From assembly GCA_965215885.1 (NCBI GenBank), contig CBDCEW010000085.1, positions 15,741 to 79,740 of the forward strand: 64,000 nt of DNA. Direction: 5' to 3'. The notes beneath the pieces were generated by a model that worked only from the letters and a program-made list of their open reading frames with translations, was not told the origin of the DNA and did no database searches. The DNA is from Candidatus Moanibacter sp. GTDB taxonomy: Bacteria > Verrucomicrobiota > Verrucomicrobiia > Opitutales > UBA2987. Position numbers and translations under genes: made by a program. Positions 3,480 through 21,255 of this stretch are shown piece after piece. Positions within the stretch are counted from its first letter, which is position 1, and every line of letters starts with the position of its first letter.

Positions 3480-3635
3480 GGACCTCACTACCGATCCCGT
3501 TCAGACCCCTTAAGGGACTCTTTGTCGTGAGCTTCGTCGCGAGCTTTGTCGAAATCGAAGGTCGTCGTCATAATCGTAGTCGACCACACTTGCGAGGACG
3601 GGAAGGTTCAGAAAAGGCTGACGATGGAAGATATC

Positions 3636-3781
3636 TCCCGTAGCCGGACGACTTCGTCGCTCGGGTCACCCCGGCCAGGTAGATTACCTGCCCGTAATTT
3701 TCGACCCTGACCACAGCTCATTGGTTGCTATCCCTCCCTCTTTCGCGTTTTTTCGCGTGTTTAGCGGGCAATTTCCTATCC
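3636..3781 (+). repeat. Dispersed ~145-bp repeat, copy 1 (copy 2 at 8541-8686)
   Basis: TCCCGTAGCCGGACGACTTCGTCG...TTTAGCGGGCAATT aligns by eye with 8541-8686 in direct orientation. Confidence 0.9.
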
Positions 3782-4113
3782 AAAGCAAATATTAGGGGAC
3801 AGGCTCTTTATACTACCCGGCGAGCCGGGACAAAAAAGTGAGCGTGAAAGAAAAGAGTGATGCCCGCCAAACACGCGAAAAAGCGCGAAAGGGGCAGAGA
3901 GTGTTCCGTTTTCAGTTTCCGGTCTTTGTCCGAAATCGACTTTCAATCTCGTTTATCATTAGACGAAAGATCCATCAGCTTCGCCCTCTCTCCGTCTCCG
4001 TGTCTGCCCATTTCCCCCTCCCCTATCGTGCTTCTCAAGCGTACCCTCCAGTCGATTTTCTTTTCTTTCGATTTTAGATTGCGATTATGGCCCGGCCAAA
4101 GTTGCAATCCTCA

Positions 4114-4466
4114 TCAAGACAGAAACAGCGTACCGCCCGGAGCTTTCGGTCGAACTTCTGTAAGCCTACACGCACCGGGCGGCGCCTTCTATTTGTCTCG
4201 GCGAGGCCGGGAACGGGACAACAGCCGGGTCAGGCTCCGGCTCTCCGGCGCGTGAGCTGACATTCGACGTAGAACGCCCAGTTTGTATCATTTGATTCCG
4301 CTGAAAGCCCCCACGTTCTTGCGAACGCGGCTACAAATATCAAAGACTTGCGGGTCACCGTAGCCGCGTTCGCAAGAGCGTGGTCGCGAATTTCGAAACG
4401 GCGTCTTTTTCAGCAAAATGGTCATGTGTATCCTGAGCAAGTTCACGGTTCACGGAGAGTACGCGG
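4114..4466 (-). repeat. ~350-bp module copy A (DGR spacer-like segment + REPIN + HRDC gene fragment)
   Basis: Near-identical direct repeat of 5317-5670. Confidence 0.9.
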
Positions 4467-4822
4467 AGCAATTATTAGGGACAGGCTTTTATACGACCAT
4501 CTCTTTCGAATTTAGACTACGTTTAGAATCACGTTGGGAAGACTGAACCGGTTCCCACTCCTACCGTGCCTCTCAATCGTGATCTCCTGTCGATCTTCTC
4601 CTCTTTCGATTTCAGATCACTGCCTGCCATGAGCCCGTCGAATGGATTATGATCCACGACGGAAAGATCGAAGCGGTTCCCTCTCTGCCATCGTGCTTCC
4701 CAATCGTGATCTCTCGTCGATCTGCTCAATCCTTCGATTTTCGACTACGATTATGACTACGAATTTCGATTAGGAACTAGCTAAGTAGACCATCTAAGGT
4801 GGTAGTCATTATCGCAGTCGAT

Positions 4823-5091
4823 GGTCGCAATTCTACGCGAGACGAAGTTTGGGCAACAATCCTGCCTTGGAATAGAGTCCGACAAACTGCTCGACAAGGT
4901 TCGCACATAGGTGATTCGAACGCCTCCACTGAGTTTCATCTTCCCCTTAATCCGGACCACCCGTAAGGGAAACCTTGCCTGCCTCGGCAGAGCGGAGCGA
5001 CGACGGGTCGCGAACCTCGTCTGCCTCGGCACAGCGGAGCGACGACGAGTCGAATCCATTTCGATTTCAGATCACGATTATGACTACGATT
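4823..5091 (+). repeat. Dispersed ~270-bp repeat, copy 1 (copy 2 at about 8848-9083)
   Basis: AATTCTACGCG.GACGAAGTTTGGGCAACAATCCTGCC...GATCACGATTATGACTACGATTA present in both copies. Confidence 0.9.
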
Positions 5092-5316
5092 AAGATTGGG
5101 TGGATATCCACTCGAAGTTCGTCGTCGTAATCGTCGTCGACGGTCGAATAATGTGTTTCGAATTTAGACTACGATTATGACTACGAATTTCGATTAGGAA
5201 CTAGCTAAGTAGCCCATCGAACGTCGTCGTCATAATCGTCGTCGATAGTCGGTCGAGAAAGATTACCAGCACGATTACGATTACGATTACGGCATGGCCA
5301 GAGGGACACTTCTGGG

Positions 5317-5670
5317 TCAAGACAAAAACAGCGCACCGCCCGGAGCTTTCGGTCGAACTTCTGTAAGCCTACACGCACCGGGCGGCGCCTTCTTTTTGTC
5401 CCGGCCAGGCCGGGAACGGGACAACAGCCGGGTCAGGCGCCGGTTCTCCGACGCCTGAGCTGACATTCGACGTAGAACGCCCAGTTTGTGTCATTTGATT
5501 CCGCTGAAAAGCCCCCACGTTCTTGCGAACGCGGCTACAAATATCAAAGGCTTGCGGGGCACCGTAGCCGCGTTCGCAAGAACGTGGTCGCGAATTTCGA
5601 AACGGCGTCTTTTTCAGCAAAATGTTCATGTGTATCCTGAGCAGGTTCACGGTTCACGGAGAGTACGCGG
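5317..5670 (-). repeat. ~350-bp module copy B (DGR spacer-like segment + REPIN + HRDC gene fragment)
   Basis: Near-identical to 4114-4466; contains inverted pair CCACGTTCTTGCGAACGCGGCTAC / GTAGCCGCGTTCGCAAGAACGTGG. Confidence 0.9.
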
Positions 5671-5750
5671 TGGCCTCGCAGAAAACGGTTCAACTTCTCC
5701 TGTCCTTCCTCAGCCGCCGTTGTAGGAATCATAAGTAAAGCAAATTGCAT
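5640..5750 (-). pseudogene. Truncated N-terminus of an HRDC-type DGR accessory protein
   Basis: MQFALLMIP..AAEEGQEKLNRFLRGHRVLSVNRE resembles, from recall, the N-terminus of small HRDC proteins found beside DGR targets; the frame runs into repeat DNA after about 35 codons. Confidence 0.65.
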
Positions 5751-5766
5751 GTCTTAAACCGGTGCC

Positions 5767-5822
5767 GAAGGGCGACTTGGCGGGGGCGGCTTCGCCTCCT
5801 CACCCCCGCCACGACGCCCTTC
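5767..5822. promoter_or_regulatory. GC-rich hairpin/cruciform downstream of the putative VR
   Basis: GAAGGGCG..TGGCGGGGG..GGC-TTC-GCC..CCCCCGCCA..CGCCCTTC stem. Confidence 0.55.
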
Positions 5823-5970
5823 TCCCCGTACTGTACCTATTACTCACTTGACCTGCATGCCAGGGCGCAGCCATTCATGGCGTAGACCGGAGGGCAAGGC
5901 GGACCTGTCTTGGCACCGCCCCTCGATTGGGTGGATTCGGCCGCACTACTGGGAAGACTACGCGAAGTTG

Positions 5971-8355
5971 TCAGTTCTGGACCTTGCGCAGGCAGAGCCG
6001 GAAGCCCAGGAATTCGTAGCGGTAGACGGCCGGGCCCCTGCCGCGGCTGGCCGACCGGCAGAACTGCGCGTCGTTTTCCCAGCCGCCGCCGCGGCGCACG
6101 CGGTACCAACCCGATTCGGGTCCCTTCGGATCCACCCTTCGGCCCGTCGGATACTCACCGTACCAGTCCGAACACCATTCCCATAGGTTACCATGCATAT
6201 CATACAATCTCCATTGGTTCGGCTCGTAGCTGCCCACTTCGACCGTCTTTTTCAAGTACGGCCCCTTCCCTCCTCCACCGTAAGGATAGTTTCCATCGAA
6301 ATTCGCCTGTCTCGAGGACAGACTGTCGCCATAGCGAAAAGCCGTCCTCGTCCCCGCCCGTGCCGCATATTCCCACTGCGCCTCGGTCGGAAGGCCGTAC
6401 ATATACCCATCCGGCAGCCGCCCCGCGGCGCGCTCGCGCTCAGTCAATTTCATTGCAAAATTCGTGGCATCCTCCCAGGATACATTCTCCACCGGCGCCC
6501 GATCTCCCGCCTCCTTGAATTTACTCGGATTACTGCCCGTGATACGCTTGTACTCCCCCTGTGTCACCTCATACTGCCCCAGCCAGAAGCCTTTCGTCAA
6601 TACTACCTCGTACAGAGGGTCTCATCACTACCCCGCCCCGACTCTCTCGCCGGGCTCCCCATCATGAACGTCCCCGGGTTAATCCAGACCATCTTCAGCC
6701 CAAGGTCAGGGACCGTCCATGGCTCCCCTTCCACCGGGCCCGAAACTTCCTCCGCCGCCGTATCCCTTATTCTCAGGCTCCCCGCCGCCTTTTCCAGCGT
6801 GACGCTGAGCCGTTTATCCTCTCGGGCTTTAAGCTCAAAAGCTTCAACGTAATCACGGTAGCCCGAGGCCGAGAGCACAACCCGATATTTCTTCAAGGGC
6901 TCCTGTTCTCCCGCCGTATAGGGCGTCACTCCAGCCCGCACTCCGTCGATCTCCACCTCCGCTCCGCTCGGAGAAGAGAGGATGACAAGCGATCCAGGCA
7001 AGGGTTGCAGCCCAACCTCGACGACAACCAGCCGATTCTCTTCAATCACTATTTCGGCAATCCCGGAATCACGGAAATCCTTTTTGCGGACTAGAATCAT
7101 CCGGTTTCCGACAGCCATTCCATCCTTTAATTCGAAGAGCCCGTTGACATCACTCTTGCCGAGCAATGTGCCGGGTTCCGCTATGCGGCCATCAGGCGAC
7201 CGGTCAACCAGGAAAATCTCAGAATCCGGAAGCGTGTTTACCAGAAGGCTTCCGAAGGCCGGCACTCCCTCTCCCTGCTCTTCTCCACCCCTTTCTTCGC
7301 GCACGATTCGTATCGCCTCAGGTCGCTTTTCTTCCCCCTCCTTCCCGGGCAGATACACGCCCCAGTAATAGCCCGCCGCCAGCCCCGCAACGAGGATGAG
7401 CGATAACGTGGCCCATACCGGCGCCCTGGATTTTCCCTTCTTCTCGGGACCGATCTCAATTCGCCTCAAATCGCCCAGAACCTCTTCGGCGCTCCCATAC
7501 CGCTCGGAACGCTCCAGCTCCATGCAGCGGTCAATTACGGCGTCCCACGTTTCGCTCGCCTCAGGAACCAGATCCGCGATCGCCTTTGCCCGCCCCAGCG
7601 GCTTCCTCCCAGTCAGCAAGTAGTAGCCCATGACTCCCACCGCGTAGAGGTCGCTGCGCTCGTCAGCCGGGCGGCCTTCCCGCACCTCCGGGCTCATATA
7701 ATCAATCGTTCCTACATATGATTCGCTACCCGAAGAGCCCGCCACCTGGGTCTCCTGATCCCCCAATTGCGAGAGGGCAATGCTCTTCCGGATCATCGTC
7801 TGCAGGAATTCCTCGCCCACCACCCGGACCAGCCCGAAGTCCGAAATCTTGATCCTCCCTGCTGCTGTGCGCAGGATATTCGCCGGTTTGAGATCGCGGT
7901 GAATAATCCCCTCTCCATGGGCATAGCGCAGTCCCTCCAGCATCTGCGTGAGAATGTCCACAACCTCCTCGGGCCTTATCCGACCGCCCTGATTCCTGAG
8001 GTAGTCTTCAAGGCTGCCCCCCTCGACATACTCCATCGCAAGGTAGAATCGGCCACGGTCCTCCCCGGCGTAGAGAACCTGCACAATCTGGTTATGCTTC
8101 AGCTTTGCCAGCGTCTTCGCTTCGCGTCGGAACCGTTCCCTGAAGTTTCCCCTCTTCGAAAGCCCGCGCGGCAGCACCTTCAGCGCATATTTCTGCTCGA
8201 GGTGCACCTGCTCCGCAAGATACACCTCGCCCATCGCCCCGCGGCCCAGTTCCTCAATGATGCGGTAATCGCCCAGGCGCTCTCCCGGCCTCAGGACACC
8301 GGGACCGGTCCGGGCCTTCGCCCGCCAGCCGCGTCTCGTCGGAATCAAAAGGCAT
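5971..8355 (-). pseudogene. Frameshifted receptor-type Ser/Thr kinase: Pkinase - TM - PEGA-like repeats - FGE-sulfatase (CLec-fold) domain; probable DGR target
   Basis: LGRGAMGEVY, HRDLKPANI, DFGL, GTIDYMSPE; TM VWATLSLILVAGLAAGYYWGV; PEGA SSPSGAEVEIDG...GVTP; FGE PGTFMMGSP, LPTEAQWEYAARAG, LYDMHGNLWEW, RVRRGGGW, LGFRL. Frame break near 6615 joins ORFs 6603-8462 and 5971-6600; a second break is probable near 8310 after ATG 8355. Confidence 0.88.
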
Positions 8356-8540
8356 GATGAGGGAAGTGGAAGCGTGAGAGTGAAAGGCGCCATCGTAACC
8401 GCGTCCTTTCCAGCGTCAAGGCTGTGGGACGGCTCCCATTTGCTCTCGGCACCGGACCCCACTTCGCTCCCCCCTGAGCGGGACTACGAGCGTCAAGAGC
8501 GGTACAGCTACCCGGGCTTCAAGTGTGCACAAGGGCCCCA

Positions 8541-9135
8541 TCCCGTAGCCGGACGACTTCGTCGTTCGGGTAATCCCGGCCAGGTAGATTACCTGTCCCT
8601 GATTTTCGACCCTGCCCACAGCTCATCGGTTGCTATCCCTCCCCCTTTCGCGATTTTTCGCGTGTTTAGCGGGCAATTCCCCATCCCGTAGCCGGACGAC
8701 TTCGTCGTTCGGGTAATCCCGATGTCCAGCCGAGTACGGATCGAGGCATAAAGCCTCTCCTACAACCTGACGGTCGTCGATGCGGCCGACTGTCTTCGAT
8801 GAGGATTGCGTGGATATCCGTTCGAAGGTCGTAATCGTAGTCGAAAGTCGTAATTCTACGCGCGACGAAGTTTGGGCAACAATCCTGCCCTGGAATAGAG
8901 TCCGACAAACTGCTCGACAACGTTCGAACAAAGGCGATTCGAACTCCTCCACTGAGTTTCGTCTTCCTTTTAGTCCGGACCACCGGTAAGGGAAACCTTG
9001 CCTGCCTCGGCAAAGCGAAGCGGCGACGGGTCCCGAACCTTGTCGAATCCATTTCGATTTCAGATCACGATTATGACTACGATTACGAATGGATGGAAAT
9101 CTGTCCGAACCTCGTCGTCGTAATCGTAGTCGACG
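8541..9135. repeat. REP mosaic holding second copies of the 3636-3781 and 4823-5091 repeats
   Basis: Visual alignment with the left-side copies. Confidence 0.88.
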
Positions 9136-9282
9136 TTCGACTTTACCCTCATCCGTTGCCGTCCCTTTCCCGGCCTGCCGGGACTGCCAAACTCTCCCGG
9201 CTCATCCCAATGAATCCGGCCTGAATGATTCTAACAACTCCTGCTACTGCCGAGGGCTGCCTCCACAACGGAAAACCCGACC

Positions 9283-17560: not shown

Positions 17561-17654
17561 CGTCCTGTTCGCCGAATTCGGGTTATTTTTGAGTTTCGTC
17601 TTCTAAGAGCCTGTCGGCAAAGTCCGACGGAAAACTGAGGTCCTTCGACTCGCT

Positions 17655-18683
17655 CTACTCCGGTTCCTTCTCGCCCGGCCCCGCGATGGACTGCCGCATC
17701 TCAGTATCGGATTGAATGTTCATCATGCGATAGTAATCCATAACACCGAGTTTTCCGGACCTGAGGGCGTCCGCCATAGCCATCGGCACCTGTGCCTGAG
17801 CCTCCACCAGCTTGGCCTGCATCTCCTGCACTTTCGCGACGTTTTCCTGCTCCAAGGCAACGGCCGCCGCTCGCCTGATCTCAGCCTGCGCCTGGGCCAT
17901 GTTCTTGTTTGCCTCCGCCTGCGCTTCCTGCAGCTTCGCCCCAACATTTTCACCCACATCGACGTCCGCGATGTCGATAGAGAGTATCTCAAAGGCCGTC
18001 CCCGTATCGAGGCCGCGATCGAGGACGTTTGTAGAAATGGAATCGGGATTTTCCAATACCCACTTATAGCTTTCCGCTGAACCGATCGTTGTCACGATAC
18101 CTTCACCGACCCGGGCGATTATTGTCTCTTCCTGCGCGCTACCAACATAACGATCGAGGTTGCTCCGCACCGTTACGCGCGCCTTTGCCTTTACCTGTAT
18201 CCCGTCCTTGGCCACGCCGTCGATCGTAGCGCGGCCTCCCATATTTGGATCCGGGCAGTCAATCACTTTCGGACTTATTGACGTGCGCACCGCCTCAGTA
18301 ATGGATTTGGATGTTCCTTTGGTCGCGAGATCAATAGCGCAGGCCCGGTCCCAATCCAGGGGAATTCCCGCTTTCATTGCGTTGATCACACCCTGGGTTG
18401 TCTGGATGACATCTCCGCCCGCCATGTAGTGTTGCTCGAACTGGTCCGAGGGTATCTCAATTCCTGCTTTAACGGCAGTAATTCGTGCATCCACGATGAG
18501 CGAATAGGGATTCCCGCGTAGCCGCATTGCGACCAACGTGCCAAACCCAACATAGGCTCCCGACAACCACGCTTTCAACCAGACGTTGAAAAACGAAATG
18601 ATGATAAATGAGAGCACCAGAACAACGACGAGGCCGATGATCGACCCGATCTGCATGACGCTAATTGCTAACGGATTGGACAT
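17655..18683 (-). CDS. floA: Flotillin-like protein FloA (YqfA)
   Basis: [45 protein letters not shown]. Confidence 0.93.
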
Positions 18684-18884
18684 GATATTAGACTGAGTTT
18701 AATTTCGCGAAGTAATGATGTTTTAACGGGGAGGAAATCCATTGCGGGAACGCCCCGTAGTTTCGCGGTTGCCGGAACTGCGCGCCAGATCAATTTCCCC
18801 CCATCAACTTCAAGTTGTTGTCTGTCGGTTGCAATGTCAAGTACTCACCACTCGCACGGCCACCAGTACTCAAACCAGGCCAGT

Positions 18885-19349: not shown

Positions 19350-21028
19350 GATTCTAAACTATCTACCAGGAGCGCGAAATTCTTATAGCCCACTACCTTT
19401 ATCATAGCGCCTCTCCTTACCGTTCCAAGGCTCAGCATTGCCTGGTAGCGTCTACCTCCGATATCGACTTCACCCATTGGATGGAGATCACTGGCAGCAA
19501 TGCCCTCACTCCCGACATCAGGTAAACTCGATTCGTTACTTAGGCTGCTCGCACCTCCCGCGGTCAGCGGATCGGCGGCGGCGACACTGCCGGCTAATAC
19601 AAGCTTATCGTAGATCCACGACCTCGGTAAGAACCGCCAGATCGCTACCCCTCCAAATATTGATATCAGAATTCCCAAGGCCAGATTGTAAATCGGTTGC
19701 CAGAGCACTTCAGGATCAAATTCAATACCATTTCCTCCATCCGGCCAAATATCCGCCATGGACCAAATGAGAGACCCCAATATCAGAACGATTCCCAAAA
19801 ATGCCGGGAAGACAGTACCGGGAAGCAAAAACAGTTCGATGCCGATAAGGATGATTCCGAGAAGGAAGAAAAGGATAGCCTCATACCCGGCCAGGCCCGC
19901 CACATAATTGCTGGCGAAGACCGTTAAAAGAAACGCAATTCCAATTCCGCCAATGAAACCGAATCCAGGAGTCTTGAATTCTATCATCATACACAGGAAA
20001 CCTATGCCCAGGAGAATGGGCGCAATAGCGTCCATATACTGGGCAAGTGTTTCAGACCAGGTAAGATTGAATTCCTTGATGACGTAATTTCCATCGCCGT
20101 ATTTCTGATCGAGTAGCTCCTCGAGCGTCTCCGCGATACCGGCCCCTAAAAGCGGCCGCGGAGGATCGCCATACTCTTTCATCGCCTCCGCCGCCGTCAG
20201 GGTCAACAGTTCCCCCTCTGGTTTGATGACTTCTCCCTCGATTTCAAGAACGTAGTCCGCATCCATCATGGCCTTAATCACCTTGGCCCGGTAGGGATCG
20301 GTCTCAGAGTAGTTGCGCACTTTTGCCCCCATATAGCTCTCGATTTTCTGCTTCGCTGTTTCAGGCACATCGTCCCCGGTTCCAAAGATTACCGCGGCGG
20401 CCCCGATCTGGCTCTTTGGCGCAAAGTATATCTCATCTGTCGCTGAGGCGATAAAAGCTCCCGCGGAGATCGCATCGACATTCACGAAAGTGACCGTCTC
20501 CCCTTGGAAACGATCCAGTATCTCCATGATTTCCAAGGTCACATCGACGCGGCCTCCTGGCGTATCCATATCCAGGACAATCACATCAACATCATTGTTA
20601 ATTGCCTCCTTGAGCCCACGACGCACGATATAAAGAGTCGGTTTCGAGATCGTATCCTGCACGGGAACGACGTAGACGGAGTGTTTCTTACCATCAGGGA
20701 GGGATCGAGGCGCTCGCTCTTTCTCGGTGGGCTTCTTGGGCTGTTCCTCTTCCACATTATCATCCGCCAATGTTTCCGTCGCTTCTACTTCCTTTGAGGG
20801 CCGGGAATCTTCCGTAAGACTCGATTCTTCCGTTTCCGACTGAGGCGCCTCCTCATTGGCCGTTTCTGTTTCGACATCCTGTCCGGGACCGGCTGCTTCC
20901 TCGATCTCAACTCTCAAGGTTCTGGCACTGTGCTTCGAAAAGGAATACGAGTACACAGAAACGATTCCGACCAAGACGATCATACTTAGTCTAACGGATG
21001 CGGCATCCCTTGAAGATCGTGTCAACAT
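19346..21028 (-). CDS. NfeD-family membrane-bound serine protease (ClpP class)
   Basis: MDTPGGRVD, AISAGAFIA, IGAA, LLTLTA, EFKTPGFG, C-terminal OB domain; start uncertain. Confidence 0.88.
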   Translation of the reverse strand: MLTRSSRDAASVRLSMIVLVGIVSVYSYSFSKHSARTLRVEIEEAAGPGQDVETETANEEAPQSETEESSLTEDSRPSKEVEATETLADDNVEEEQPKKPTEKERAPRSLPDGKKHSVYVVPVQDTISKPTLYIVRRGLKEAINNDVDVIVLDMDTPGGRVDVTLEIMEILDRFQGETVTFVNVDAISAGAFIASATDEIYFAPKSQIGAAAVIFGTGDDVPETAKQKIESYMGAKVRNYSETDPYRAKVIKAMMDADYVLEIEGEVIKPEGELLTLTAAEAMKEYGDPPRPLLGAGIAETLEELLDQKYGDGNYVIKEFNLTWSETLAQYMDAIAPILLGIGFLCMMIEFKTPGFGFIGGIGIAFLLTVFASNYVAGLAGYEAILFFLLGIILIGIELFLLPGTVFPAFLGIVLILGSLIWSMADIWPDGGNGIEFDPEVLWQPIYNLALGILISIFGGVAIWRFLPRSWIYDKLVLAGSVAAADPLTAGGASSLSNESSLPDVGSEGIAASDLHPMGEVDIGGRRYQAMLSLGTVRRGAMIKVVGYKNFALLVDSLES

Positions 21029-21091
21029 TAGCAAAGTACTATTCTGAAAAGCGCAGATAACAAATGCAAGCCCACGCAAGGTAGGCTTTTG

Positions 21092-21255
21092 CTAGGAATC
21101 TGTCGGACTTAGAATTCCTAACATTCCCTTGGTGCAGATTTCATGGTTACAGATCGACATTCCGACCCAGATAAGACCGACAGATTCCTAGCAGCCTGTC
21201 GGAATGAAACCGAGTAACTCTTTCGAAAGATGCACAAAGTCCGACAGGCCGCTAG
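21092..21255. mobile_element. Two tandem CTAG-bounded mini-MITEs
   Basis: CTAGGAATCTGTCGG...CCGACAGATTCCTAG (21092-21191) and CTAGCAGCCTGTCGGA...TCCGACAGGCCGCTAG (21188-21255). Confidence 0.65.

Follow-up and report, generated by a model that had tools for sequence, protein, structure and literature searches.

A probable remnant of an HRDC-type DGR behind a frameshifted receptor-kinase gene of Candidatus Moanibacter

The locus described here is most probably (probability about 0.88) what remains of an HRDC-type DGR after the loss of its RT, its TR and the larger part of its HRDC gene. The target of this DGR, predicted to be a single-pass Ser/Thr kinase whose CLec tip is likely periplasmic, carries frameshifts and has probably ceased to be diversified. 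Adenine-directed rewriting from a TR RNA is established for DGRs, and a relic of such an element had already been proposed in a preliminary description of this DNA; the footprint of a variable repeat (VR), an HRDC stub, the identity of the Sp and the absence of a TR and a DGR RT from the assembly all speak in favor of it. The window, i.e., the whole stretch of 64,000 nucleotides that was analysed (G000:C85:15741-79740), belongs to an assembly of 6.36 Mb in 105 contigs, which is 90.3% complete and has 5.5% contamination. On one side, the locus is flanked by genes which we take to encode acetyl-CoA carboxylase and thiamine functions, and on the other side presumably by dnaJ and grpE. The locus is surrounded by genome repeats; positions 3500-5310 and 8400-9200 are packed with interspersed copies of several genome repeat families and contain many GTAGTC/GACTAC motifs, and a 343-nt block is present on both sides of the locus in copies that are 81% identical. 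The features are listed in Table 1.

Table 1. Features of the locus, in window coordinates
Feature	Position	Strand	Basis or remark
Target gene, 5' part: Ser/Thr kinase (about 8267-7500), predicted TM, PEGA (about 6995-6786)	6603..8355	(-)	
Predicted single TM helix	7368..7424	(-)	hydropathy
Target gene, 3' part: FGE-sulfatase/CLec domain, in a frame that differs from the kinase part	5971..6600	(-)	
Former variable repeat (VR) with its 3' end, frozen	5971..6105	(-)	codon-position test, comparison with foreign TRs, public contigs
GC-rich hairpin	5767..5822	(-)	folding; also after C86 paralog
First 35 codons of DGR HRDC accessory gene (stub), ATG at 5750	5646..5750	(-)	
Palindromic genome-wide repeat, REPIN/MITE-like	5499..5622	(-)	occupies place of remaining HRDC, RT, TR
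Last bases of TR and Sp (TR 3' flank)	5325..5462	(-)	G215 match, Sp profile
Local duplicate of stub end, repeat and Sp, 94-97% identical	4074..4466	(-)	1.2 kb away

Judged from its sequence, the tail of the target gene is a former VR which carries a DGR footprint. In comparison with the closest paralog (C86:16440-17114), the differences at codon positions 1/2/3 amount to 8/8/24 over the 105 codons before the tail and to 13/14/4 over 32 tail codons (Fisher p 6.7e-5 for the shift); position 3 carries 24 of 40 differences before the tail, and positions 1 and 2 carry 27 of 31 inside it. At the amino acid level, 15 of 105 residues differ before the tail and 20 of 32 within it. The preliminary description had noticed that the non-conserved tail codons mostly end in C, and the counts agree: a third-position C is found in 29 of 44 tail codons versus 179 of 736 codons elsewhere in the gene (Fisher p 2e-8), and only 7 of 3871 genome ORFs of at least 250 aa reach this level in their last 44 codons. 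Aligned with the TR of genome G451, the former VR differs at 19 of 29 TR adenines and at 13 of 78 other bases (p 2.6e-6), i.e., 19 of 32 mismatches are located at an A in this comparison with a foreign TR, the cognate TR being lost; with three foreign TRs as reference, the fraction of differing TR adenines is 63-68%, versus 17-21% for the other bases. The codon-position shift and the adenine bias against foreign TRs fit the hypervariable-type tail that had been suggested earlier, and footprint and homology together show, at the level of sequence comparison, that adenine-directed rewriting once acted here.

A Pfam search assigned a kinase domain (PF00069, E 8e-51), a PEGA domain (E 2e-12) and an FGE-sulfatase domain (E 3e-39) to the target gene, and the Gly loop, Lys, HRD and DFG motifs of the kinase are all present. 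The best FGE relatives are mostly found in Verrucomicrobiota and Planctomycetota, and the best solved-structure match of the FGE/CLec part is Treponema TvpA (2Y3C, E 1.8e-23), which is a DGR target. The kinase-TM-PEGA-FGE gene of the preliminary description holds with respect to these domains; however, it is not one continuous frame, but is broken by two frameshifts, and its TM is borderline by hydropathy. As a result of a +1 insertion near 8306, the ATG at 8355, which is equivalent to the paralog start, does not share the frame of the kinase; four paralogs begin with MPFDSDET and continue into the kinase without a change of frame, and the window copy has one additional base near 8306. A 2-nt insertion near 6614 results in a stop of the first frame at 6603, thereby cutting off the kinase-TM-PEGA part from most of the FGE domain. 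The +1 insertion is found in the listed contigs of all four public runs; the 2-nt insertion is present in the X1, X3 and X4 contigs, but not in an X5 contig of 98% identity. An upstream ATG at 8393, which is in frame with the kinase and preceded by AGGA about 9 nt before it, is a candidate start that could bypass the +1 insertion. The predicted TM is a hydropathy peak of 1.63 (Kyte-Doolittle) preceded by KKGKSR, and a second weak peak of 1.68 lies within the PEGA region. The corresponding TM peak reaches 1.67 in a 959-aa paralog on contig C86, 1.99 in genome G321 and 2.29 in G451; a 791-aa paralog on C86 has no peak of 1.6 or more. Based on the positive-inside rule and the basic residues N-terminal of the TM, the kinase is predicted to be located inside and PEGA and CLec outside. 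The receptor-kinase target put forward earlier is upheld in its layout, which has an intact counterpart in G321, but not as an intact receptor at the window locus. The two frameshifts, the additional copy of stub end, repeat and Sp, and five paralogs, one of them intact, had been overlooked in the earlier reading.

The GC-rich hairpin that had been described downstream of the target gene was recovered at exactly 5822-5767 (DNA fold -23.5 kcal/mol, z -5.9 versus 300 shuffles). It starts 149 nt past the target stop, and the hairpin region is conserved after a C86 paralog, where a shorter stub follows; a role of the hairpin in target recognition would be a putative one. The HRDC-like N-terminus previously placed at 5750-5640 was confirmed from the ATG at 5750 to about 5646 and corresponds to the start of a DGR HRDC accessory gene, as far as its homologs indicate. 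Over 35 aa, it shares 57% identity with the complete HRDC protein of G215, and in the own genome it is matched with an E of 4.2e-12 by a profile to which the stub itself contributes; the HRDC domain proper (residues about 79-147 in intact copies) is missing. A Pfam search gave no match for the stub, and a protein search with the 40-aa stub, which is a weak search, gave no candidate. A search with the stub gave matches in 8 of 400 phylum genomes, six with an RT in the fetched stretch and five with an adenine-biased TR/VR pair; among 400 order genomes, a profile search gave 18 N-terminal matches, which are distributed over 14 genomes, and when all 18 were fetched, an RT was present in 15 and an adenine-biased TR/VR pair in 11. 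Over the phylum and order sets, 21 of the 26 loci homologous to the stub have an RT match. Homologs of the stub adjoin DGR RTs, and A-specific TR/VR pairs exist in this lineage, both contrary to what would have refuted the preliminary description. Further HRDC stubs or RT-less HRDC genes were seen in other genomes (L060, L061, L129, L185), and the otherwise intact DGR of G215 carries a gene between HRDC and RT (L058:7484-8160), which we assume to be similar to a REP-associated tyrosine transposase. The palindrome at 5622-5499 occurs at 82 loci on 41 contigs of the genome; the earlier term REPIN is retained here as REPIN/MITE-like, a label that refers solely to this copy number and the palindrome.

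The structured segment behind the repeat (RNA fold z -3.9 for 5462-5336) matches the TR 3' flank of G215 (E 1.8e-5) and aligns with ten other TR flanks. A profile of 19 foreign TR flanks, from which the own genome was excluded, detected no more than two sites in 6.4 Mb, namely 5325-5460 (E 2.5e-5) and its duplicate (E 3.8e-4). With a partial third copy, the 3' half of the Sp inside a repeat mosaic (G000:C84:29333-29426), the own genome contains two full copies of the Sp-like segment and a partial one. The order target-HRDC-RT-TR-Sp prevails among the intact relatives, G267 with TR and Sp before HRDC being an exception, and the segment is accordingly identified, by homology, as the Sp that follows the TR at the end of such a cassette. 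The preliminary description had taken it for a TR-RT spacer; because the order in most such DGRs is target-HRDC-RT-TR-Sp, it has to be reassigned to the TR 3' flank. From this assignment and the cassette order, it follows that the lost block comprises the remaining HRDC, the RT and nearly all of the TR. In the literature, the Sp is reported to lie immediately behind the TR, to be 140 nt long and to prime cDNA synthesis (bioRxiv 10.1101/2023.10.23.563531). Rfam returned no family for the segment at its cut-off, and ten sub-threshold matches to miRNA hairpins were taken as chance; consensus folding of 12 Sp sequences gave only four pairs, too few to claim a shared structure. For the window Sp as a candidate partner of the TR that once wrote this VR, the first bases differ from the VR end, and duplex energies between post-VR bases and Sp are confounded by GC content. 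In 14 intact DGRs, the bases just past the VR can pair with the end of the TR and the head of the Sp, with a longest exact match that averages 8.4 nt and reaches at least 9 nt in 7 of 14; the mean is 5.4 nt for 210 non-cognate pairs, and the window pair has 6 nt. In the window, 5955-5982 (target gene end) and 5454-5480 (around the Sp start) show an imperfect complementarity of ~24 nt by eye.

As the preliminary description had postulated, TR and RT seem to be lost: neither blastn nor an adenine-tolerant scan nor a motif search detected a TR in the 90.3%-complete assembly, the best non-self match of the adenine-tolerant scan being a paralog VR with 21 non-A mismatches. A DGR RT was not found there either; the two RTs present are both of the group II intron type by length and motifs and are 23-30% identical to DGR RTs. 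Of the HRDC gene, the assembly yielded the stub and no full copy. An Avd-family match at C80:2025-2351 was rejected as accessory gene, as it lies among metabolic genes with neither RT nor TR adjoining. Among eight same-family genomes searched, no DGR-type RT was found in five (best 26-29% identity), and HRDC had no match in any of the eight. Variation of the VR was read from assembled contigs of three studies, which hide rare variants. Among the pieces listed, X1, which may be the source sample, has three differences in 1749 nt, X4 one in 493 and X5 one in 555, and no ongoing variation was seen over the VR; an X5 contig crosses the junction of stub and repeat with zero differences. X3 has no high-identity piece over the VR among those listed, and an X3 contig over 5770-6010, considered as a strain with the full cassette, proved to be the C86 paralog (34 mismatches, 5 gaps).

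The target gene has at least six paralogs in the own genome: the window copy, four on C86 and one on C69. On C86, one is cut by an IS, one is intact (959 aa, C86:11803-14682) with synonymous drift in its tail, and two are damaged; the C69 copy is broken and has no FGE domain. An HRDC stub follows two of the paralogs. The paralog VRs differ at third positions too and can therefore not all stem from one current TR without drift. The C86 array is flanked by genes at G000:C86:9396-11066, 17578-18762 and 19449-21119, presumably two near-identical transposases and a Fic-like gene. An intact relative is found in the same order: G321:C94:3472-8569 encodes a 1074-aa kinase-TM-PEGA-FGE target followed by HRDC, RT, TR and Sp, and 20 of its 22 TR/VR mismatches are at TR adenines; its kinase is only 37% identical to that of the window. 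A second similar gene lies upstream of it and a group II-type RT downstream. The G451 kinase is 62% identical to the window kinase and has an internal stop, and the HRDC gene is fused to a cut RT, followed by an IS, then TR and Sp. At a second G451 locus (C3, L183:7429-8000), HRDC is joined directly to the 3' half of the TR and Sp, with an apparent short microhomology at the junction, a parallel path of decay. In G295, a kinase-TM ORF and an FGE ORF are split by a stop ahead of a full DGR. Also widespread in the order is a conserved protein family (e.g., G000:C105:151094-152692) of about 1000-1070 aa, which unites kinase and FGE domains in a single ORF and is without DGR parts. Among 76 FGE-related genome loci, two are intact HRDC DGRs, one has a stub, and six have a kinase in the ORF, with an RT beside none of the six; among 80 metagenome loci, one has target and HRDC at a contig end, and none has an RT.

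A plausible course of events would begin with a cassette target-hairpin-HRDC-RT-TR-Sp, which rewrote the tail at TR adenines. The target gene would have been duplicated into at least six paralogs, the middle from HRDC to TR deleted or replaced by a genome repeat, and the tails would then have drifted while most copies decayed. In the intact form, a variable CLec outside the inner membrane would bind a ligand and thereby switch the cytoplasmic kinase, so that the DGR would change which ligand triggers phosphorylation.

The main reservation about the relic reading is that the assembly is incomplete and contaminated to the extent given above, so a DGR in the unassembled part is possible. The tail could then be a remote target, as published for other DGRs (PMC7517822), which continues to be diversified in trans by a DGR that either resides in unassembled sequence or is carried by only some members of the population; diversification in trans had also been considered in the preliminary description. 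Intact variants beside degraded ones (PMC10907252), the X5 allele without the 2-nt insertion and the hairpin region shared with the C86 paralog would fit. However, such rewriting is very unlikely because contigs from three studies show a near-identical tail; furthermore, the assembly yielded neither TR nor DGR RT nor full HRDC gene, its sole Avd-family match is unlinked to RT or TR, five of eight same-family genomes gave no DGR-type RT and all eight no HRDC match, and one current TR would require drift to account for the third-position differences among the paralogs. It is hardly conceivable that the tail is simply the ligand-binding end of a kinase-FGE family, evolving fast in the ordinary way, with unrelated repeats downstream. 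Kinase and FGE do share an ORF in 31 of 39 distinct loci examined in this order, with RT, HRDC and Sp in none, 22 of the loci having only about 1.5 kb flanks, and the Sp-like segment is itself repetitive. In a quick FGE tree, however, these widespread proteins are set off, as a branch of their own (22 rows, SH-aLRT 100), from the four own-genome FGE cores, which group together (SH-aLRT 96), and positive selection alone does not account for the third-position C, the HRDC stub after two paralogs and the Sp match; this explanation is thus largely refuted.

Another explanation regards the target as a receptor that has been domesticated: once a useful variant had arisen, the DGR would have been discarded, and the gene would still work in some strains or switch by frameshift. 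The in-frame allele at 6614 in X5, possibly also in X1 and X3, the upstream ATG with its AGGA, the intact kinase motifs and the intact 959-aa paralog are in line with this idea. However, frameshifts, deletions or an IS insertion have disrupted five of the six paralogs, and the +1 insertion recurs in all four runs, which makes domestication rather unlikely.

Kinase-CLec targets, HRDC DGRs and degenerate DGR loci are already published. HRDC was reported in 14 of 372 DGRs, with one kinase target type (PMC5758913), and leftover targets are described in isolates without RT and TR (PMC4891356). Like the HRDC DGRs of architecture C, e.g., Treponema denticola with TvpA (PMC5758913; PMC4891356), the remnant combines an FGE/CLec target and a C-terminal VR with HRDC instead of avd; in Treponema, however, the HRDC gene is described between TR and RT and the targets mostly carry lipoprotein signals, whereas in the intact relatives here the prevailing order is HRDC-RT-TR-Sp, and the target is fused as kinase-TM-PEGA. 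Cyanobacterial Ser/Thr kinase-CLec targets (PMC7517822) likewise join a kinase to a variable CLec and have dispersed paralogs, but most are predicted to be cytosolic, whereas here a TM and PEGA repeats lie between both domains; a TM or signal is given there for four DGR and nine remote targets, with domains unspecified. In degenerate DGR loci of Thiohalocapsa PB-PSB1 (PMC10907252), MITE-like repeats in place of RT or TR and duplications are also found, some CLec domains are predicted to be periplasmic, and a kinase is among the target domains; in contrast to our genome, in which no complete locus was found, each class there keeps one complete locus, and loci are active. The structured segment of about 140 nt after the TR and the GC-rich hairpin after the VR resemble Bordetella phage BPP-1 (bioRxiv 10.1101/2023.10.23.563531; PMC3240598) in position, not by sequence comparison, and the hairpin is longer and further away than in phage DGRs, where it lies 4-34 bp from the VR (PMC3240598). 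PEGA domains and membrane-bound DGR targets (Roux et al., bioRxiv 10.1101/2020.04.01.020958) as well as kinase-annotated targets and PEGA after a TM (PMC11661182, PMC7159879) have been described; an intact single-pass kinase-TM-PEGA-CLec layout was not found in the literature searched, and supplementary target tables may list one.

The relic in the window is ordinary in itself, and its value is that of a pointer to the G321 DGR with its predicted transmembrane kinase, in which signal input and output are combined in one chain. With G321 intact, G451 decaying, the window locus apparently dead and split-kinase cases in G295 and one metagenome contig, it is tempting to speculate, albeit at slightly less than even odds, that HRDC-type DGRs of this order have repeatedly been coupled to single-pass receptor kinases with a hypermutated outer lectin-fold tip, the DGR being a transient visitor that leaves behind a fixed array of receptor variants. 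The series from G321 over G451 to the window genome illustrates the decay of such cassettes, and G321 makes it testable whether DGR variation alters which ligand switches on a signalling pathway.
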